Both the position numbers and the translations under genes were made by a program. A stretch of DNA of 32,000 nt from an uncultured archaeon (GTDB lineage: Archaea; Iainarchaeota; Iainarchaeia; Iainarchaeales; CSSED10-239): assembly GCA_964496765.1 (NCBI GenBank), contig CAZCAP010000006.1, forward strand, positions 1 to 32,000. Direction: 5' to 3'. The notes under the pieces are model-generated. The model worked only from the letters and a program-made list of their open reading frames with translations, did no database searches and was not told the origin of the DNA. Positions 8,140-30,038 of the stretch are shown piece by piece. Numbering within the stretch: position 1 is the first letter of the stretch; each line of letters starts with the position of its first letter.

Positions 8140-11118
8140 TTGATTTCCTCGGACTATTAGTATTAGTAGACTTAATCTCTCGTCGAAACTAGAAACTTAC
8201 ATCACTAACCTATCAAACCGGTCTTCTTCCGGAGTCCTTGTCTTCTCTTTCGAGAAGAATGGCTGTCTCGTTTTAGGGACCGCTTCGTTCTTAGATGCTT
8301 TCAGAACTTATCGGCAACAGCGTGGCTACTGGACAGTGCCTTGTCAGACAATCCATAGACTAGAGACTGCGACACCTCGTTCCTCTCGTACTAAAGGAAT
8401 CTTCCCCTCAGACAACCTGCACAACCAAAAGATAGGAACCAAACTGACTCGCATCGTTCTTAACCCAACTAATGTACGGCTTTAATGAGTGAACACCTCC
8501 ACCCTTGGCTACTTGTGCACAGCCAGGATGCCGTAAGCCGACAGCGAGGTAGCAAACCGCGGGGTCGATGTGAACTCTTACCCGCGACAACCCAGTTACC
8601 CCCAGGGTAAGTTCACTGTCAGACTAGGCCCCCATAAATAGGGACACTAGCGTTCGCTAAACCCAAGTTTCCTTCCAACGTTCCGTGCTTTTAGGAACAT
8701 TGTTAAGCCTGCTTTTGGTTTTGTCCTCTACGACTGATTTCTGACCAGTCTGAGCAGACCTTTGGACACCCCTGATATCCTTTCAGGGGTGTACCGCCCC
8801 AGTCCAACCACCAAATCAAATGCTGTCCGTCTCCAAGAGACGTAAGATGTATTTTTCCCACTAGATGGTGTTACATTGGTGTCTATCTACTCCCTAGCGA
8901 AAGTAGCTTAAGCGACTCCCATCTACGCTCTATAGCAAGAATAATACAACAACATCAGACTGTGGTAAACCTCCGTGGGGTCTTATCCTCCCTTTGGTTG
9001 TCCGTGGCGTATTCACCACGAGTGCACGTTCACTAGGTCCAAACCAGGGACAGTGACGATCTCGTTACTTCCTTGATGCAAGCCGACATTTAATCGGCAA
9101 GGTATTACGCTACCATGAGAGCCTCAGAGTTAGGCCCGCTCTTTACCAGCGCTTAGATCAGTTGGAACTGATGTTCACGTACTAGCAGTGAGCAGAAGTC
9201 AGTGACTATACACACCGTTTCCGGCTAGCAGTCACCTGTGTTTTTGTTAAACAGTCGGACCATCTTTGTAATTAAAACTTACAGTTTACATAACCGTAAG
9301 CACCCCTTGTACCGAAGATACAGGGCTAATTTGCCGAATTCCCTTGGTTTGGTTCTCCTATTACGCCTAAGCCTACTCAGCTAGGGACACCTTTCTCAGT
9401 TCTTGGTACGAGCAATAAAACACTGTATAGTTTTCTTTTCATGGGCCCTTGACGACAATGAAAGGTTTCCCCCATTCGTACATTAATCTCTTTCTCATTA
9501 TTACAATTCTCCAGAGATTTGTGGCACTTAGATATGAAGACTTTCATACTCCACCTTGCCAAAAGCGTTAAAAACTATACTTGCGTTGCCACACGTGCAT
9601 TATTGGTACAGGAATATGAACCTGTTTCCCTTTCAGATGTTTTCGAGTTACGAAGATCTTTAGGATCGACTTACCCTTAGCTAAAAATTAGTGCTAAGGA
9701 ACCCTTGCCCTTTCGGCGGAAATGATTCTCACATTTCTTTGATGTTACTGACACGAGGATCCATATCTTTGACAGATCCAGTAGACGTTACCGCCTACCT
9801 TCTGCTCTATCAAAGCACCTATCTACCAGATCACAGATTATCTGTGCTCTACGATTTCGGCAACTAGTTTAGCCCCGTTAATTTTCAGGGCAAAATACCA
9901 TAGATTGGTGAGCTATTACGCACTCTTTAAAGGATGGCTGCTTCTAAGCCAACCTCCCAATTGTATTTGGTAAATCACTCCTTTCAAGTTCACACTTAAC
10001 TAGTATTTAAGGGCCTTAATCGTAGTTCGGGTTTTTTCCCTTTTGGAATAGAGGCTTATCCCCCACCCCCTGCTCCGGCCTTCTAAGAAGAATAACAGAT
10101 TCGGAGTTTGACAAGGAAGGTAAGAATTTCTCCCCAGTACTTCCTAATCAGTATCTCTACCCCGTTATCATTCTCCAGCCAGGCTAACCTAAGAGTTATT
10201 TTGATAGGAGCCCGCTATCAGCAGGTTAGATAACCTTATCAGTCCTACACTCAAATCACACAAACAGTTAGACTGGAACTGCTGCTGGCCTCCACCAACC
10301 AGACGGTCGGTTTCACCATGTTCAAGCGTTTATCACCTGCTTTCGGGTCTTGTTCATATGACTAAAAGGCACATTAACACCTCTTGCCTGGAAATTTTGC
10401 GCAAAATCGGTTTCCCTATGACACAGTGACTTCATCACTTAATCTTGCCACATAAACAAACTCCCTCGCCCGTGCTTCTTGACGGACAGTATGACATTGA
10501 TCAAACAGAACACGCTTATGCTGTTACCAACACTCACTTATTGTCTGTCTTCATTCCTTTCATGCCATACCCGAACTGTTGCTAATTAGTTTCAAGTGCT
10601 TTTAACCCCCCGCTAGGGGTACTTTTCAACATTCCTTCGCAGTACTCGTTTACTATCGGTCTTGTAATATATTTAGAATTAGCAGTAAATGTCTGCTGTA
10701 TTCCTACGCGATATCCGACGCGCAGTACTCTCGAACAGTAGCAATCATCTATTGTCACCTTATTTCTACGGGACCATCACCCTCTATGGTATATCTTTCC
10801 AGATAACTTCGATTTGAGTGCACTAGATGTAACTACCTCTTAACACCACATGTCTCATATATTACTATATGAGATTCGGTTTGTTCTTCACTGCTTTCGG
10901 TCGACCCTATTTACAGTATCACTATTGTTTTCTTTTCCTCTAGGTACTAAGATGCTTCAATTCCCTAGGTTACCCTCCAACCTCCTTTATGAGATTGGAT
11001 AATTCAAGAATCTTGGGATCAAAGGCTGCATGCGCCTACCCCAAGCTTATCGCAGCTTGCCACGCTCTTACTCGGTTTACAAGCCAAGTTATCCACTAAT
11101 TAGCTTAATTGAAATCAA
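8140..11118 (-). rRNA. 23S (LSU) rRNA, archaeal type
   Basis: The reverse complement contains GCGUGGCAAGCUGCGAUAAGC (plus 11045-11065), the sarcin-ricin loop AGUACGAGAGGAAC (plus 8379-8392) and the A-loop GGUGUUCAC (plus about 8488-8499). The 5' UUGAUUUC (11111-11118) can pair with GAAAUCAA (8140-8147) as helix 1. Ends are approximate (+/-15 nt). The region is GC-richer than its flanks. Confidence 0.92.
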
Positions 11119-22889: not shown

Positions 22890-23567
22890 TTAAATTAACA
22901 TAGATAAGAAAAAGATTAAAAGGCTTACGGGAAGGAGAATTAATAAATAAATGATTGCTTTTTTCCTATTATCCTCTAAAATGGATAAATATATTGAAGA
23001 AATTATAATATATTCAACAATATAGATGATTACACAATAATAGGTAATGGAATATAAAGAAATACCAACTGTTTCACTAATCTCAGGAACAGATGTTTTT
23101 AAGCTCTTAATTAGAGAGATTACAATTCCAAGTATACCAGGAACAATCAAACTACTAGAGAAGAGAATGGTGTACTTCTGCATAAGAAGATTTGAGTTTC
23201 GTTCATCAAGAACCTGCTTGGTTTTAATAAAATTATCAGCAACAGACTTATAGTCAGAAAAGGAAATGGTTCCACTTGTTGTAGATAAATAGATTAAATC
23301 TAGGAATCTATTTAGTATCTCTGAATTATATTTCCTTTTTAAAATATCAAACAACTCTTTAGGTTTGTGGCCTTTATTTATTTTTAATAGAATATCTGTA
23401 AAGTTTCTAGAAATTATTTTATTTCTTGATTTAGAGAGTTTTTCAAGAATTATTTTTAAATCATTACTCTTGGGAATGGAAGAAAGCTTAAGTATTTCAT
23501 CAACCAATGCATTTTCTAATTTTCTTCTCTCAAGAGAAAAATAATATTTTTCAAATAAATTAAACAT
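22890..23567 (-). CDS. T2SS-F/TadC/FlaJ-like platform protein (half-size)
   Basis: 225 aa. A soluble helical N-terminal domain is followed by C-terminal TM segments. It sits directly downstream of a second T2SSF-like gene and the ATPase. The assignment rests on architecture and context. Confidence 0.5.
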   Translation of the reverse strand: MFNLFEKYYFSLERRKLENALVDEILKLSSIPKSNDLKIILEKLSKSRNKIISRNFTDILLKINKGHKPKELFDILKRKYNSEILNRFLDLIYLSTTSGTISFSDYKSVADNFIKTKQVLDERNSNLLMQKYTILFSSSLIVPGILGIVISLIKSLKTSVPEISETVGISLYSITYYCVIIYIVEYIIISSIYLSILEDNRKKAIIYLLILLPVSLLIFFLSMLI

Positions 23568-23585: not shown

Positions 23586-24329
23586 CTATAGAGGATTATT
23601 GGATCTTATTACTAATAGCAGCAACATATCAATTAACGGGAAAAGTACGATTGTAATAAACACAATTGTAATTGGAGAAAAACTAAGTTCGAGAAAATTA
23701 CTTCCCACCAATAAAAACATTAGAAACATGGATGGAATGATTGCTGAAAAAACAATAAACAATAATGTTAATAAATTTAATTTAGTTGAGAATCTCCTAA
23801 CCATTTGGGTTTGATTTTCAAAAATGGTGTCAGATAATGTTTTTAGAGAATACTCCTTATTCCTGACTCCTGAATCCATAATATCTTCAATTTGATAAAA
23901 AACTCTTTCAAGTTCAGGATAACTTGAGGACACTGAAAACAAGGCATCCTGTAAATTAAAACCATGATTTCTAACCAAATACAAAGCTTCTCCAATCAAT
24001 CTCCCAATCTCACTATTATCACACCTTGATTCAAGCGCAATCTTGAGCGGAATATTCTTTGAAAGATCAGTTGCTAAATTATTTAAAAAGAAGGGAAGTT
24101 CCTGTTGTATTTTTTTTCTTCTGGTTTCTAAAACTATTTTTTTATTAAAAAAAGTTATTGAAAAGAAAATTATAAATGAAAGAATAAATATATAAATTAA
24201 ATTATTAAATGATAATTCAAATAAACTATAATCCACAAGCTTGTATATAAGAAACAACGAAAGAAAGAGAACACAATAGAGAATTAAGTTCTTTCTTGAA
24301 AAAATCTCTTCAATAATCTTTGGCATCAT
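23586..24329 (-). CDS. T2SS-F/TadB/FlaJ-like platform protein (half-size)
   Basis: N-terminal TMs, then ELPFFLNNLATDLSKNIPLKIALE...GEALYLVRNHGFNLQDALFSV..., then C-terminal TMs. This is the layout of the GspF/PilC/TadB domain. The start overlaps the ATPase stop (ATGA). Confidence 0.6.
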   Translation of the reverse strand: MMPKIIEEIFSRKNLILYCVLFLSLFLIYKLVDYSLFELSFNNLIYIFILSFIIFFSITFFNKKIVLETRRKKIQQELPFFLNNLATDLSKNIPLKIALESRCDNSEIGRLIGEALYLVRNHGFNLQDALFSVSSSYPELERVFYQIEDIMDSGVRNKEYSLKTLSDTIFENQTQMVRRFSTKLNLLTLLFIVFSAIIPSMFLMFLLVGSNFLELSFSPITIVFITIVLFPLIDMLLLLVIRSNNPL

Positions 24330-26206
24330 TTACGTTTATCTCCCTTAGCACTCATGGTTTGAATGAAAAATGAAAGAACATCCTCTGGGGAGGGGGTGGT
24401 GGTTTTGGAAGCACACTTGTCCAAGAAATATAGCAAGCTTTTATTTTGTTTTTTAAATAGTTTATTTAATTCCAGTTGATTTTTAACTCCAAAAGCAATT
24501 CTAAATTTATCAAACAATTTTTTGGAAGTTCCAACCTTTACAAGCTTATCTTTATTTATATCAAATTCAAATAATCTATTTAATACAGGCTTATTATTTT
24601 CAAAGATAACTTCACAAATCTCAGTTACATTTCTTAGATCTGATACCTTACCTTTATTATATTTATTATATCTTCTTTGAACAATAATTAAATCAATAAC
24701 TCCTAAATCATTCTCAATAACACCATAGGAAACTAATCTTAAAAGTGCTTCCTTTGCACTTTGAGAATGGAAAGTGGTATAGGTTCCCTTTGCTTGCCCA
24801 CAGAGCATAGAATCAATTATCGCTTTTGATTCATCCCTTGATCTCACTTCTCCAATAACAACCCTATCGGGTCTCATCCTAAGTGTATTAATAACTAGAG
24901 AATCAAGAGTAACTCCCAAATCAGGATTAACAAGAGTAAATATCTTGTGCTCATGGGGTATGTTTATTTCTCTAACCTCTTCAACCACAACAAACCTTTC
25001 ATCAGGTGGAATAAAAGAAAGAAGAGCATTAAGAGTTGTGGTCTTCCCAGAACCTGTATTCCCAACAACAAACACATTTGAATCAGTTAAAAAAGCCAGA
25101 GATAAAAATGAAAGCGCATCAATGGACAACGTGTTTCTTTTAATTAAATCAATAATAGTAAATGGCTTTTCTGAGAATTTTCTAATTGTAACACACACAC
25201 TTTCAGTAATTGGTGAAATTATTGCATTCATTCTAGACGCACCAATGGTTGCATCCAAAAGTGGATTCTTCAAAGTTATATACTTATTGGTTTCCCAGGA
25301 TAATTTATTAATTAAATCTTTAATTATTTTAGAAGACGTATATACTAAGTTTGTTTCAAGCCACCCAAAGATTCTATGATACACAAAGACTGGTTTGTTT
25401 TCTCCAATTATTGAGATTTCTTCTAGACTATCATCCACAAGTAGGTTTGATAGAGGCCCATAGTCATAGAGATTACCATAGGCAATCAAAAGAATATAAT
25501 TGAATTGATCAGATTCCAGTTCTATCTTTTCTCTAAGGCAATAATTAACTAGTGTTTCTTCAAGTTCGTTTTTTACAATTCCTGGTAGTTTATCAGGAGT
25601 ATTTATTCTAACCTGTTTTTCATTATCATCTTTAATATCAAACCTATCCCTGTATTCATCTATAACAAAATTAATTATTTCAATCTCATCAATTGAGAGA
25701 ATGGATTCCTCAATAAAATAATATTTTTTATTTGAATCATCTATATATACGTTTTTAGAAAGGTTTTTTTTATTAAACTCAAATATTCTATAGCCTAGAT
25801 ATTTATTAATTATTTCTAACTCATCACTTTCACTAGTGTCATTAACCAGTTCTAAAATATCTGGATTGTTTTTTAAACAATATCTATTAAATGATTGTTG
25901 AGAACATAGATCACACTTATATGCTTTATTCTTTTTAACTACAATTGCATTGTGTGGGCAAACAGCAATACATTCTAAACATCCAGTACATCTTTCTGGA
26001 TCAATAGATACAACCCCCTTTGCAGAGAAGTAGATTGCATTTGTTTTGCAGGCACCTAAACAGGGAGCATCTTCACAATTCTTACAATTAAATACAATTA
26101 GAGCATCTCTTACTTTAAATTCATAGGGGCAATTAAGAAATAGGTTTTTATTTTTTCTCGTAGATAGTACTTTAGCTTTGTCTTCATCTTTAAATTTAAT
26201 ATACAT
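24326..26206 (-). CDS. FlaI/PilB/VirB11-class secretion ATPase with an N-terminal 4Fe-4S (DmsB/HycB-type) ferredoxin module
   Basis: Motifs: Walker A GNTGSGKTT, Asp box VVVEEVREI, Walker B PDRVVIGEVR, His box TTFHS. The N-terminal 110 aa carry CKNCEDAPCLGAC, CTGCLECIAVCP and CDLC...C. Confidence 0.85.
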   Translation of the reverse strand: MYIKFKDEDKAKVLSTRKNKNLFLNCPYEFKVRDALIVFNCKNCEDAPCLGACKTNAIYFSAKGVVSIDPERCTGCLECIAVCPHNAIVVKKNKAYKCDLCSQQSFNRYCLKNNPDILELVNDTSESDELEIINKYLGYRIFEFNKKNLSKNVYIDDSNKKYYFIEESILSIDEIEIINFVIDEYRDRFDIKDDNEKQVRINTPDKLPGIVKNELEETLVNYCLREKIELESDQFNYILLIAYGNLYDYGPLSNLLVDDSLEEISIIGENKPVFVYHRIFGWLETNLVYTSSKIIKDLINKLSWETNKYITLKNPLLDATIGASRMNAIISPITESVCVTIRKFSEKPFTIIDLIKRNTLSIDALSFLSLAFLTDSNVFVVGNTGSGKTTTLNALLSFIPPDERFVVVEEVREINIPHEHKIFTLVNPDLGVTLDSLVINTLRMRPDRVVIGEVRSRDESKAIIDSMLCGQAKGTYTTFHSQSAKEALLRLVSYGVIENDLGVIDLIIVQRRYNKYNKGKVSDLRNVTEICEVIFENNKPVLNRLFEFDINKDKLVKVGTSKKLFDKFRIAFGVKNQLELNKLFKKQNKSLLYFLDKCASKTTTPSPEDVLSFFIQTMSAKGDKRK

Positions 26207-26356
26207 CTAGATAAATCACAGATATATTCATGAATAAAATTATTAATATTTGTATTCCTATAATTAAAAAATAATTAAACTCAAATAAAGATAAAACAAT
26301 CAAGGATAATTAATATCAAACACGTTTGCCATTGCATTATAGCTTGATTTAAATCT

Positions 26357-27094
26357 TTAATACAGTTCAGAAAAATTAGTTAACATGGTTGTGTTAAGTC
26401 TACCCTCAATTCCATTCATCGAATCAGATATACTTATATTAATATCATTAATCTGAGAATTAACATTATCAAATTGAGTAGTTACGTTATTGAATTCATT
26501 CATGATATTATTATCAATATAATTTTGCACATCATACACTCTTGCATCAACTGAGCTTATTCTTTCAGTTAGATTATTATCCAAATCATCTAATCTCTGC
26601 ACAAGTGCAACGTACTGTTCTCTCTGGGATCTTGAAACTTCAACAATTAAATTAAGTCCTGTTGAAACGTGGAATGAAGATGAAATTTGCAATACCCTTG
26701 GGGTTCCATTTCTAATTACTGTACACTTTACTGCTTCTTCATACACTCCTTCATATTCAGGAGTAATGAATGAAACATAATAGTTCCCAGGAACTGTGGT
26801 TGGACCCATTTCCCTATCCACAAAGAAGAAAGATTTATCAGGGTATAGTAAGGATACAATACAATTTGCATCAGTTATTGATATTCCTTTGGCATCCTGT
26901 AGCCTAACAATAATCTGACCCTGTTCATTACTTATGTATTCAGTTCCAGATACCATCATAAGATCTGATGCTACTCCCCTTCCTTTAAAGTAAAATATAA
27001 GAAAGATGCCTATTGCAAGAAGAACAACTATACCTATTACTAGGTATATTCTTTTTCTATTTCTACTTTCATGCATATGCTGTCTAAACATCAT
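26357..27094 (-). CDS. N-anchored surface protein, paralog A (beta-sandwich-like domain plus short Asn-rich helical repeat tail)
   Basis: TM IYLVIGIVVLLAIGIFLIFYF. The domain TEY..IVRLQD..G...C.V.LLYPDKSFF.VD...PGNYY...G.YEE.VKC...SSFH is homologous to 28647-29144. The tail LDNNLTERISSVDARVYDVQNYIDNN... resembles the 55-aa repeats. Confidence 0.7.
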   Translation of the reverse strand: MMFRQHMHESRNRKRIYLVIGIVVLLAIGIFLIFYFKGRGVASDLMMVSGTEYISNEQGQIIVRLQDAKGISITDANCIVSLLYPDKSFFFVDREMGPTTVPGNYYVSFITPEYEGVYEEAVKCTVIRNGTPRVLQISSSFHVSTGLNLIVEVSRSQREQYVALVQRLDDLDNNLTERISSVDARVYDVQNYIDNNIMNEFNNVTTQFDNVNSQINDINISISDSMNGIEGRLNTTMLTNFSELY

Positions 27095-27139
27095 ATTATT
27101 ATTTCAACTCAGAGATTATGACTATATTATATAGTTAAT

Positions 27140-27190
27140 ATATAAAAACAAAAAGTATAAAAAACCAGGGGATTTCAATTTATCCCCCTG
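27140..27190 (-). terminator. Hairpin plus oligo-T terminator after the repeat-protein gene
   Basis: On the minus strand, CAGGGG(G)AU..loop..AUCCCCUG (27166-27190) is the only GC-rich element in the spacer. It is followed immediately by GUUUUUUAUACUUUUUGUUUUUAU and begins 22 nt after the stop at 27213. Confidence 0.55.
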
Positions 27191-27212
27191 ATCTTCCATA
27201 AACCAAATTCAT

Positions 27213-28580
27213 TTATGATATTATTCTTACATCAATCTGGCTCTCTTGATTATCTAAAATATTGTGAGCTGTAGAATTAATGTCTGTTGTTTGTGCCTTA
27301 ATAATACCAATGTCTGTTAATAATGTATCAATTCTTGATGACACACTTCCTGAAAGGTATTCCCAGGTTGTTGTTGTTGTATTATCTATTTCATCAAGTC
27401 TTGCTACCTGTTCATCATGCATTACAACAGCAGCTGCTTTGATACTATATATTTCTTGACATAGAGCACTTGAGTCGGTCTCTGGGTTTGAACAAAACTG
27501 TTCAAGTAAAGTAATATTTCCATCAATGTTTTCAAATCTTTGGTCAATTGCTGCTCTATCTGTATCATTCATAGCATGTGTTGTTAACCATGTGGTATCA
27601 TCCTTAACACTCTGTACCTGAGTTGATAATTGATCAAGCATAGCGTTTAATTGAAGGTTAAGATCTCCAGCAACAAGTCCTATAATCATATCTGATAAAG
27701 AAGCATTAACATCTGCTAAATCAGATTTAATTTCCTGTCCTGTTATAACAACCTGTCCATTAACACTAACTTCTAAACTATCAAGTCTTGCACTTAGGAA
27801 ATTATTTGAATCTAAGAATTTCTGTGCAATTAAAGCATTTGTGTTATTAAATTGGTTTGTTATTTGGCTTGATAAACTTACGTTCAATGAATCTAAAATT
27901 CCTGTTAGGTTTGTATTAACATTTGCTAAATTTGTGTTTATCTCGTCACCAGTATCTTGAACCTTAGCATTCAAACTTACATTCACATTTTCAAGTTGAG
28001 CAGAAAGCTCAGCAAACTTGGTTGTCATTTGTGTTGCAAGGTTTGTGTTTACTGTGTTCAATAGATTTGTTAAAGATGTATCAACATTTGTTAAGTGAGC
28101 ATTTATTGAATCACCTGTTGCTTCCATCTTACCATCTAAACTTAAGTTAATGTCCTGTAAATTATTTCCAAGAGTCTCAAATTCAGAACCCATTTGGTTT
28201 GAAAGGTTTGTATTTACTGTGTTTAGGATACTTGTCATTGATGCATTTACATCACTTAGGTTTGTGGTTATTATTTGTCCAGTTTCAGCAACCTTAGCCA
28301 TGATTGTTAAGTTAACATCATTTAGTTGTGCTGTTGATGCATTAAATTCGCTTAACATCTGACCAGATAAGCTAGTATTAACAGAATTTAATAAACTTGT
28401 TAATGATGTATTAGATGTGCTTATACTTGTTTGTAATTCCTGTCCTGTGGTTACAACAGTTCCAGTAATACTTACATTAACAGCATCTAGTTGAGTTCCA
28501 AGTGTATTAATTCCTTCATTTAATTGGTTTGTTACACCTGCATTAACATCTGTTATTAAATCATTTAAGTTTGTATTCAT
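27213..28580 (-). CDS. Asn/Thr/Ser-rich tandem-repeat fibrous protein (probably the C-terminal part of one gene with 28647-29144)
   Basis: 455-aa ORF with no signal or TM segment. Exact 55-aa repeats and about 18 N-x-S/T sequons by my count. It is in frame with the upstream ORF across a single TAA. Confidence 0.7.
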   Translation of the reverse strand: MNTNLNDLITDVNAGVTNQLNEGINTLGTQLDAVNVSITGTVVTTGQELQTSISTSNTSLTSLLNSVNTSLSGQMLSEFNASTAQLNDVNLTIMAKVAETGQIITTNLSDVNASMTSILNTVNTNLSNQMGSEFETLGNNLQDINLSLDGKMEATGDSINAHLTNVDTSLTNLLNTVNTNLATQMTTKFAELSAQLENVNVSLNAKVQDTGDEINTNLANVNTNLTGILDSLNVSLSSQITNQFNNTNALIAQKFLDSNNFLSARLDSLEVSVNGQVVITGQEIKSDLADVNASLSDMIIGLVAGDLNLQLNAMLDQLSTQVQSVKDDTTWLTTHAMNDTDRAAIDQRFENIDGNITLLEQFCSNPETDSSALCQEIYSIKAAAVVMHDEQVARLDEIDNTTTTTWEYLSGSVSSRIDTLLTDIGIIKAQTTDINSTAHNILDNQESQIDVRIIS

Positions 28581-28646
28581 ATTTGAGATATTAGTTGTTA
28601 ATATTTCGTTTGTGTCTGCAATCTGTGCACTTAAAGAAACATTTAC
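27612..28646 (-). repeat. Six tandem 165-nt (55-codon) coding repeats
   Basis: Units start VNVSLSAQIA, VNVSITGTVV, VNLTIMAKVA, INLSLDGKME, VNVSLNAKVQ and LEVSVNGQVV. The first five starts are exactly 55 residues apart; unit 5 carries a 15-residue insertion, so the sixth start follows 70 residues later. At nucleotide level, AAGGTTTGT(G/A)TTTACTGTGTT recurs at 28038 and 28203, a 165-nt offset. Unit 1 starts immediately after the TAA at 28647-28649 and spans the annotated ATG. Confidence 0.85.
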
Positions 28647-29144
28647 TTATCCAAGGTTTGCATCAAGTGCATCTACCTTTTCAGTAACTATTCTTACCTG
28701 CTCAAGAGCTGGGTTTAAGTGGAATGATTGAGATGTTTTAATTGTTTGTGTTCCCTTAAGACAGGTTACTTCCTGTTCATAGGTTCCAAGCGGAGCACCA
28801 GCAAGTGAATCTGTTCTATACCAGTTTCCTGGGATATTTGATAAAGCTAGTGGCTGATCATCAACAAATGTACTCTTATCCGGTTTTAGGATAGTTACGT
28901 TACATGAGTCAACTGCATAGGGGTCTCCTCTAAAATCAGCAAGTCTTACTATTGTTGAGGCAACGTCATCTCTCCAATATTCAGTGTGGGATACCCAACT
29001 GACTACTGGTTCATTAACTGTTTGCTTACCATCAGTGTATGCAAATGCAAAGAATGCAATTACAACTATCACAATGGTTGAAACAATACCCCATCTAATA
29101 AGCTTTTTTTTCTTATTTGTATATTTTGGATTTAAATCTTCCAT
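28647..29144 (-). CDS. N-anchored surface protein, paralog B N-terminal part (TM plus beta-sandwich-like domain), ending at an in-frame TAA
   Basis: AAGGTGA lies 5 nt upstream of the ATG. TM IVSTIVIVVIAFFAFAY. The domain TEYWRDDVASTIVRLADFRGDPYAVDSCNVTILKPDKSTFVDD...PGNWY...GTYEQEVTCLK...SQSFH is homologous to paralog A. Confidence 0.75.
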   Translation of the reverse strand: MEDLNPKYTNKKKKLIRWGIVSTIVIVVIAFFAFAYTDGKQTVNEPVVSWVSHTEYWRDDVASTIVRLADFRGDPYAVDSCNVTILKPDKSTFVDDQPLALSNIPGNWYRTDSLAGAPLGTYEQEVTCLKGTQTIKTSQSFHLNPALEQVRIVTEKVDALDANLG

Positions 29145-29417
29145 ATCTTCACCTTATTTCACAATTTTTTTTTAAAAATATAACTACTATTCTGATGCCC
29201 TAAATCAATAGACTTTAGGCTAATAGCTTACTATATGTTGGCTATAATGATTATAAACCTATTTGTTTAGAAAATTAAAGAAAATCAATGATTTTGGTAA
29301 GATTATTAACCATTAACTGTGAACAATTACCTTCAAAACACACTTGTTTACTAGGATAATAAGCTTATTTTAACCCAACTAAGTTAAGTAGGTAATTTTG
29401 ATTGGATTTCATATGAA

Positions 29418-30038
29418 TTATTTATTTAAAATAAGTATAAACTTTTTTTTTTTAATAGATGCTTCATTATAAATAAATTTGCGTACATTAAAATCGCATC
29501 TCTCAAATGCAGATGCAACAACATCAAAAACTAATTCATTTCCTGGATAAAATTGAATTGCAAAAGCTCCTTTCTCTGATAAGAGATTAAACACATCTTT
29601 TCCTATTTTTTTTATTATATTTTTTATTTCCAGTTCTTTCTTATTTGAAATTACCCATTGAAGAGAAGAAACAGAAATAATTAAATCAAAAGAGTTTTTT
29701 TGAAAAGCCAAGGCCCCTAAATCCAAAAACCCACCAACTTTCACATTTAATTTTTTTCTTTTTGCAATGTTTATCATTTCTATTGCTGGATCAATTCCCA
29801 CCACATTCTTATATCCTAAAGATTTAAGATAACTAATAGAAAAACCAGTTCCACATCCAATATCTAGTATCCTATCCTTATTACTAATATGAGCTTTAGA
29901 AAGAGAAAGAAGAATAGATGTTAATTCCTCTTGAGTTTTTTTCATTCCTGAAGAAAGATCATATCTTTCTGCTTCTTTTTTTATATAAAAATCATTTGGA
30001 TTTTCATATTCCTCTTCAGGAGTAATCTTTTTAGTCAT
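29418..30038 (-). CDS. Class I SAM-dependent methyltransferase, Bud23/WBSCR22-like
   Basis: Motif I ILDIGCGTGFS. Family-specific strings as I recall them from yeast Bud23: N-terminal FY.KKEAERY, ISVSSLQWV (compare ISISAIQWL), AIQFYPGN (compare VAQFYPKN), C-terminal KKKKFILIL (compare KNKKYYLVL). Confidence 0.75.
   Translation of the reverse strand: MTKKITPEEEYENPNDFYIKKEAERYDLSSGMKKTQEELTSILLSLSKAHISNKDRILDIGCGTGFSISYLKSLGYKNVVGIDPAIEMINIAKRKKLNVKVGGFLDLGALAFQKNSFDLIISVSSLQWVISNKKELEIKNIIKKIGKDVFNLLSEKGAFAIQFYPGNELVFDVVASAFERCDFNVRKFIYNEASIKKKKFILILNK

Follow-up and report, generated by a model that had tools for sequence, protein, structure and literature searches.

A single in-frame TAA in a conserved surface-fiber gene of an uncultured DPANN archaeon, a probable recent loss-of-function allele

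Gene layout, repeat units and predicted protein architecture

The DNA analysed here (the window) is a stretch of 32,000 nucleotides, positions 1-32,000 of contig CAZCAP010000006.1 from the genome assembly GCA_964496765.1 (0.74 Mb, 29-30% G+C, 86% complete), which we refer to as G000. One frame of its minus strand holds two open reading frames, of 165 aa (29144..28650) and 455 aa (28580..27216), and between them lie one TAA (28649..28647) and 22 sense codons (28646..28581). The initial annotation had claimed that this stop and the ATG at 28580 share the same frame with no other stop between them, and the translation agrees. Throughout 29144..27213 the only internal stop is the one at 28649..28647, and the junction reads ...EKVDALDANLG * VNVSLSAQIADTNEILTTNISN M NTNLNDLITDVN... 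with the ATG of the methionine at 28580, the frame across the stop (x) reading LG-x-VNVSLSAQIADTNEILTTNISNMNTNLNDLITDVNAGVTNQLNEGINTLGTQLDAVNVSITGTVVTTGQELQTSISTSNTSLTSLLNSVNTSLSGQMLSEFNASTAQLNDVNLTIMAK (LG-x-VNVSLSAQ). The merged gene has 643 codons, of which the TAA is codon 166, so that the cut falls after codon 165, and past this stop the frame stays open for 477 codons up to a natural TAA at 27215..27213. The features of the locus are the following.

29149..29153, minus strand: GGTGA, a Shine-Dalgarno-like motif 5-9 nt upstream of the true start, ATG 29144
28650..29144, minus strand: codons 1-165, predicted short cytoplasmic tail, transmembrane anchor (residues ~15-37), Ig/macroglobulin-like beta-sandwich (~47-143) and linker helix (145-159)
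28647..28649, minus strand: premature stop TAA at codon 166, where seven of eight related DNA alleles have CAA and one has GCA
28581..28646, minus strand: the 22 sense codons VNVSLSAQIADTNEILTTNISN, annotated as intergenic, which repeat register and orthologue alignment assign to residues 1-22 of repeat unit 1
27216..28580, minus strand: codons 189-643, which cover the remainder of unit 1, the other 55-residue units and a conserved helical C-terminal domain that has two Cys and RIIS at its end
27213-27215, minus strand: natural stop
27167..27188, minus strand: terminator-like hairpin with a T-run, 3' of the full-length gene and the sole one in 26200-29500
26357..27094, minus strand: paralog A, 245 aa, with the same anchor and beta-sandwich and a short coiled tail, intact

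The part of the protein that follows the stop is built of repeats. Self-comparison gave 35% identical positions at a lag of 55 residues against 4-12% at most other lags, with lesser peaks (14-19%) mainly at multiples of 11, that is, a period of 55 residues with a sub-period of 11. Unit 1 opens at the residue directly past the stop, and the 22 supposedly intergenic codons together with the first 33 residues of the 455-aa ORF make up this unit; the earlier claim that they form one full 55-residue unit in register with the following ones is thus confirmed by the self-comparison layout. The stop itself fills the last position of a linker segment (...KVDALDANLG*), a position that in later units is occupied by D, N or Q. 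An open run of 22 codons would by itself be expected with a probability of ~0.16 in a genome of 30% G+C (our own estimate), which is not significant; what carries the observation beyond chance is the repeat register together with the colinear alignment to unbroken orthologues (see below). The 455-aa ORF was called as a separate one only because codon 189 happens to be a methionine, and with normal termination the TAA allele can yield no more than the 165-residue product.

As the initial annotation had pointed out, the 455-aa part has neither a signal nor a transmembrane segment and is rich in N-x-S/T sequons. Its highest 19-residue Kyte-Doolittle mean is 1.14, compared with 2.37 in the N-terminal anchor (residue 15), and it contains 18 sequons, i.e., 4.0 per 100 aa versus 0.70 genome-wide (~5.7-fold). 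An AlphaFold2 monomer model built on 46 homologues (mean pLDDT 68) predicts the transmembrane helix and the beta-sandwich (47-143) with confidence (pLDDT 80-96 over residues 20-140), followed by 55-residue units (27216-28646, minus strand) that are each modeled as a beta-hairpin, with its turn at a conserved T-G, plus a helix of ~25 residues (pLDDT ~70), and then by a long helical C-terminal domain; no continuous coiled coil is seen in the model. Foldseek matched the beta-sandwich to the MG2 domain of alpha2-macroglobulin (2p9r, TMt 0.72) and to a filamin domain (4umg, TMt 0.61). Matches of the whole model to complement C3 and S-layer proteins were rejected, since generic Ig-like domains account for them and the TM for the full length is 0.12-0.14. 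The Pfam search returned no family match, only Apolipoprotein and Baculo_PEP_C, both below threshold and both helical-repeat look-alikes.

What is conserved among relatives is the N-terminal domain and, at the other end, the C-terminal domain with its two Cys; the number of units varies, the open frames ranging from 412 to 866 aa. Judging from sequence and model, the full-length product is probably a glycosylated stalk on the cell surface, anchored in the membrane and bearing a distal head. Fibrous stalks with conserved ends and variable tandem units are well known, and the tetrabrachion of Staphylothermus has a hendecad coiled-coil stalk. The likeness to tetrabrachion and to trimeric autotransporter adhesins extends to the membrane-proximal domain, the long repeat stalk, the 11-residue sub-period, the variable copy number and the conserved distal domain. 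Unlike those systems, the gene examined here has no sequence family match and its units are modeled as a beta-hairpin plus helix and not as a pure coiled coil.

Downstream of the gene come a short paralogue, a secretion ATPase fused to a ferredoxin, and two small membrane proteins that are platform-like. The paralogue (paralog A) had been described as reading straight through the equivalent junction, and it (27094..26360) does align across the stop, with 30% identity over 207 columns and E = 1e-20; it is a possible partial back-up. A matching short paralogue adjoins the long gene in six of the seven other genomes matched in the first relatives search. The ATPase is of the secretion/pilus type (T2SSE domain; 24326-26206, minus strand) and carries an N-terminal 4Fe-4S ferredoxin-like module; 3' of it are the two small T2SSF-like membrane proteins (23586-24329 and 22890-23567).

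The stop in other assemblies and the same codon in relatives

Metagenome-assembled genomes contain consensus errors, and this general prior is the one point in favor of a sequencing or assembly error here. The 165-aa product is on record on 13 contigs, nine of which were fetched, and eight of these nine have the TAA. All eight match the window at 100% identity over 1.4-6 kb, flanks of the stop included (Logan SRR8437217, SRR8437218 and SRR8437247; ENA ERZ27248937, ERZ27248920 and ERZ27248895; JGI 3300028191 and 3300028168). Some of these assemblies may re-assemble the same libraries, yet the same TAA was obtained from no fewer than three separate runs and with three pipelines, which excludes an assembly or consensus error for all practical purposes; we regard this explanation as hardly credible.

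A different question is whether the TAA is only the majority allele, with an intact CAA allele persisting in the population so that a subpopulation of cells would still display the fiber. The sequence of Logan contig SRR8437287_422059 breaks off exactly one base short of the T of the TAA, the place where a T/C variant would make a k-mer graph branch, and in the sister lineage described below haplotypes with one and with two stops coexist. A co-occurring relative could equally well cause this break, since DNA of the type found in G001 (a genome of the same genus) is identical for the 42 nt before the site, and the TAA is the form found in eight assemblies. Neither the exact look-up of the protein with Gln at the stop nor the homology search recovered an uninterrupted allele of this strain (the best full-length match is 89% identical), and a pattern scan of metagenomes with N at the variable base gave no match in a scanned set that leaves out records close to the genome of the window. 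A persisting intact allele looks rather unlikely to us, though it deserves some weight, and it would be compatible with the loss-of-function allele that we favor, as a sub-case of it. In several independent assemblies, breaks in the short contigs of this strain (L019-L024) recur at window positions ~29248, ~28520-28540 and ~27840-27850, with one break exactly before the TAA, a pattern that points to related strains occurring together or to graph branches induced by repeats at the locus.

Relatives of the gene are unbroken. A search of 196 genomes of the order gave matches in eight, and the internal stop was found in G000 alone. The other seven species genomes (G001, G014, G005, G018, G008, G016 and G153) encode a single open frame of 412-866 aa with no stop, in the same neighborhood; G001, which belongs to the same genus, has 90% amino acid identity. 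Over the 22 codons that follow the stop, G000 and G001 differ at five codons synonymously and at four non-synonymously. Databases hold a further 72 homologues (369-643 aa), every one of them called as a single protein, with source names that point to DPANN archaea (Woesearchaeota, Nanoarchaeia and Aenigmarchaeota). Thirteen of the 72 were aligned and all have a sense residue at the site of codon 166, and four that were read as DNA (P0001, P0002, P0004 and P0199) are intact under table 11. One family member with ~64% identity in the N-terminal domain (L041; ENA ERZ24794647, NODE_61448, coverage 3.95) has a 1-nt insertion at ~1760-1775 that shifts the frame at about codon 212 and leaves overlapping ORFs of 216 and 309 aa; given the low coverage, this insertion may be an error.

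The initial annotation had proposed looking in orthologues for a sense codon at the position of the stop, and they do carry CAA or another sense codon there; two separate genes with a real spacer, the arrangement that it named as the contrary outcome, were not seen among relatives, which encode single ORFs. Codon 166 is CAA in G001, L055, L058, L062 and three haplotypes of the sister lineage, and GCA in L057, while distant homologues have D, N or E at this site. In a tree of the nine DNA alleles G000 is nested within the lineages that bear CAA, so the change is read as CAA to TAA, and the premature stop as derived from a glutamine codon by a single C-to-T transition.

The possibility that there are two genuine genes, the 455-aa ORF being translated alone from ATG 28580 by internal initiation or re-initiation, can be weighed at this point. 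This ATG is only 66 nt past the stop, a distance at which re-initiation is physically possible, and the 455-aa ORF is intact. The arrangement is nevertheless absent from all the relatives examined, in whose proteins Met189 is merely a hydrophobic position of the repeat (M, I or L). The ATG at 28580 has no Shine-Dalgarno-like motif and not a single G from -24 to -1, whereas AGGTGA precedes the true start at 29144, in line with the G-rich peak that the position-specific composition of 405 gene starts of the genome shows at -14..-8. The product would, moreover, lack an anchor or signal though it is built like a glycosylated extracellular stalk, and its unit 1 would miss the first 22 residues. We consider two separate genes very improbable. 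No terminator-like site comparable to the hairpin at the end of the full-length gene follows the TAA within 26200-29500.

Independent stops in a sister lineage and the age of the lesions

Querying with the 165-aa piece we also found a 107-aa product that is 93% identical to it. This product belongs to a sister lineage that carries the gene at ~90% nucleotide identity, on contigs that come from another study. Here the gene is interrupted by a change from TGG to TGA at the invariant W108 in four samples (JGI 3300013123, JGI 3300013125, SRR11049291 and SRR11050433), and two of the four also have the invariant Q124 changed from CAG to TAG; SRR11050433 holds the form with a single stop. Codon 166 is CAA in all of the sister-lineage contigs (L038, L039, L040 and L054). 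Hence, the same gene has been broken independently in a sister population, by different stop codons.

The three haplotypes of the sister lineage differ at four sites in 5 kb, all of them within this gene. One of the four changes is nonsense, two are non-synonymous and one is synonymous. Both amino acid changes (relative to the residues of G000) and the second stop are GC-to-AT transitions. Under the long-term dN/dS of the gene (omega ~0.07), the probability that at least three of four changes are non-silent is ~0.02 by a hand calculation. After its first stop the gene of the sister lineage has thus gained another stop and mostly non-silent changes, which looks like stepwise decay, the behavior to be expected of a decaying and not of a recoded gene.

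How old these lesions are can be approached through the part of the gene downstream of the stop. Comparing the two broken lineages gives it a dN/dS of 0.065 (dS 0.50), and comparing with G001 one of 0.11. With outgroups used to polarise the changes in this part, 46 synonymous and 14 non-synonymous ones fall on the G000 branch and 51 and 7 on the sister branch, and no excess of amino acid change was found on the G000 branch. The downstream dN/dS of 0.06-0.11 reflects the time before the stop. Strong purifying selection has acted for nearly all of the time since the split, and both lineages appear to have gained their stops very recently; from ~7 excess non-synonymous changes we estimate that the stop spans at most roughly 5-10% of the G000 branch. 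All the copies of the G000 strain are identical, and there is no second lesion in the 477 downstream codons, which would fit a very young mutation and would also fit continued use of the downstream part.

Termination, recoding and the meaning of the split gene

Continued use would be expected if the stop were leaky or regulated, for example through a near-cognate Gln tRNA, giving mostly the stub and occasionally the full fiber, a kind of heritable dimmer for surface genes. Several observations can be aligned with this possibility. The downstream frame is fully intact, all three stops of the two lineages fall in the first quarter of the gene, and G000 has a second surface gene split by a TAA, reproduced in three assemblies. 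The location of all three stops upstream of Met189 has a probability of ~0.03-0.04 given the spread of stop-prone codons, a figure to which we attach little weight, since it is post hoc and treats as independent three events of which one is not.

The evidence that speaks against it is more varied. The stop is not conserved, TAA166 being found in the G000 strain only and TGA108 and TAG124 in the sister lineage, so that position, codon and type (TAA, TGA, TAG) differ by lineage, and in the sister lineage a second stop and amino acid changes have accumulated after the first. None of the 37 tRNAs identified by ARAGORN in this 86%-complete genome has the anticodon UUA of a suppressor. TAA is the strongest and the dominant terminator of the genome, ending 468 of 666 long ORFs (~70%). 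The RNA around the stop (28660..28530, 131 nt) folds no better than shuffled sequences (z = -0.76). The context of the stop is TAA-G and, to our knowledge, rules for leaky stop contexts in archaea have not been established. A genome-wide scan for ORF pairs in the same frame parted by one stop gave only two convincing splits, this gene and the one on contig C11 described below. Neither does the site resemble a phase-variable switch, since GGA TAA GTA AAT contains no homopolymer or short tandem repeat and Tandem Repeats Finder reports nothing there. The literature search found no paper on UAA read-through in archaea, nor any on the samples themselves. All in all, a leaky or regulated stop appears improbable to us.

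Known cases of recoding differ from this gene in telling ways. Programmed read-through is found, for instance, at the UGA that precedes the A1 coat extension of phage Q-beta and at the gag-pol UAG of MuLV. There too an in-frame stop parts a short product from an open C-terminal extension, but both the stop and its context are conserved and the stop is leaky or accompanied by a stimulatory structure, whereas here we have a lineage-specific TAA without structure. Archaea themselves insert pyrrolysine at UAG and selenocysteine at UGA, for which a dedicated tRNA is needed. These are likewise in-frame stops inside archaeal genes, although the codons concerned are UAG and UGA and here no tRNA with anticodon UUA was found; we know of no recoding of UAA in archaea.

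The release factor aRF1 is present (G000 contig C8, 16846-19590, minus strand; 914 codons). Directly after its catalytic GGQ it contains an intein of ~500 residues, with LAGLIDADG motifs and a helix-turn-helix of the Cro/C1 type, after which the protein resumes at SSHRFERLR. The idea that this intein weakens termination was dropped, because in-frame stops are not widespread in the genome.

The second split gene lies on the minus strand of contig C11 of G000 and is also interrupted by one in-frame TAA (8690-8692; L026 3391-3393). Its N-terminal part, of 358 aa, is pilin-like and has repeats of the chitobiase type (CHB_HEX_C_1 / Fn3_assoc). Past the stop, 1078 open codons encode more of these repeats as well as a Gly-rich region and a C-terminal domain. 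Sister repeats have AG-S/T/N-F at the place taken by the stop, and the product is also found in JGI 3300028298, SRR8437217 and SRR8437247. No close orthologue was found; the homology search returned a mass of proteins with chitobiase-type repeats, and the orthologue of G001 runs off its contig. Taken together, the two split genes keep alive a small probability for a mechanism by which stops are tolerated. In its broadest form, early nonsense codons in genes of surface fibers and pilin-type adhesins would be tolerated and recurrent in this DPANN group, and residual read-through or a minority intact allele would act as a heritable dimmer for structures that are costly or exposed to viruses. We mention it as a long shot.

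The initial annotation had left three options for the stop. A recent nonsense mutation is favored by the orthologues, which are single ORFs; the second, a sequencing or assembly error, is contradicted by the eight assemblies; and the third, regulated read-through, is not supported, with the stop not conserved and neither a suppressor tRNA nor a structure found. In our opinion this is, with high probability, a real and recent loss-of-function allele, arisen by a change from CAA to TAA in a conserved DPANN surface-fiber gene and one of several independent knock-outs. That the gene has been knocked out independently and recently more than once is the reason for reading the allele as a loss of function.

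The sequence of events would be as follows. The two ORFs are best read as a single gene for a probably glycosylated fiber, which is anchored by a transmembrane segment and continues through a beta-sandwich and the tandem 55-residue units to a conserved head at the C-terminus. In this population a single C-to-T transition turned its codon 166 from CAA (Gln) into TAA. With normal termination only the anchored stub of 165 residues would then be produced, and presumably no full-length protein is made. The stalk and the head would be lost, because the downstream ORF has neither start signals of its own nor an export signal. The TAA allele, which is the one assembled in every sample that holds the strain, would be young compared with the divergence from relatives, and it may have spread by selection (e.g., escape from a virus or a changed contact with the host) or by hitch-hiking in a clonal bloom.

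A parallel can be drawn with Prochlorococcus, in which mutations in surface genes reportedly confer resistance to viruses. The similarities are the truncation by a single base change, the different lesions in the same gene, the purifying selection that prevails otherwise and the dominance of the allele in a near-clonal population. The difference is that here we deal with an uncultivated DPANN archaeon read from sequence alone, for which a selective cause can only be proposed.

If the knock-out interpretation holds, a widely conserved surface fiber of DPANN archaea has been repeatedly knocked out in nature, twice in sister populations, with each allele dominant in several metagenomes. The fiber would then be dispensable or counter-selected under some conditions, and its recurrent loss makes it a good candidate for a receptor used by viruses or a structure that contacts the host; the latter role bears on how these episymbionts attach to their hosts. 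The case is ordinary in kind, a young pseudogene, yet as a natural example it is clean, showing a surface structure lost repeatedly among uncultivated episymbiotic archaea.

As for annotation, we recommend merging the two ORFs into one gene marked as interrupted; the 455-aa "protein" is not an independent product. Protein collections call for some caution as well when "intact" homologues are counted. One entry (P0202, 643 aa, 94% identity) was considered as an intact close allele and rejected, since the DNA of its contig (L054, SRR11050433_223083) has TGA at codon 108; it looks intact only because TGA was taken as Trp when the short contig was translated.
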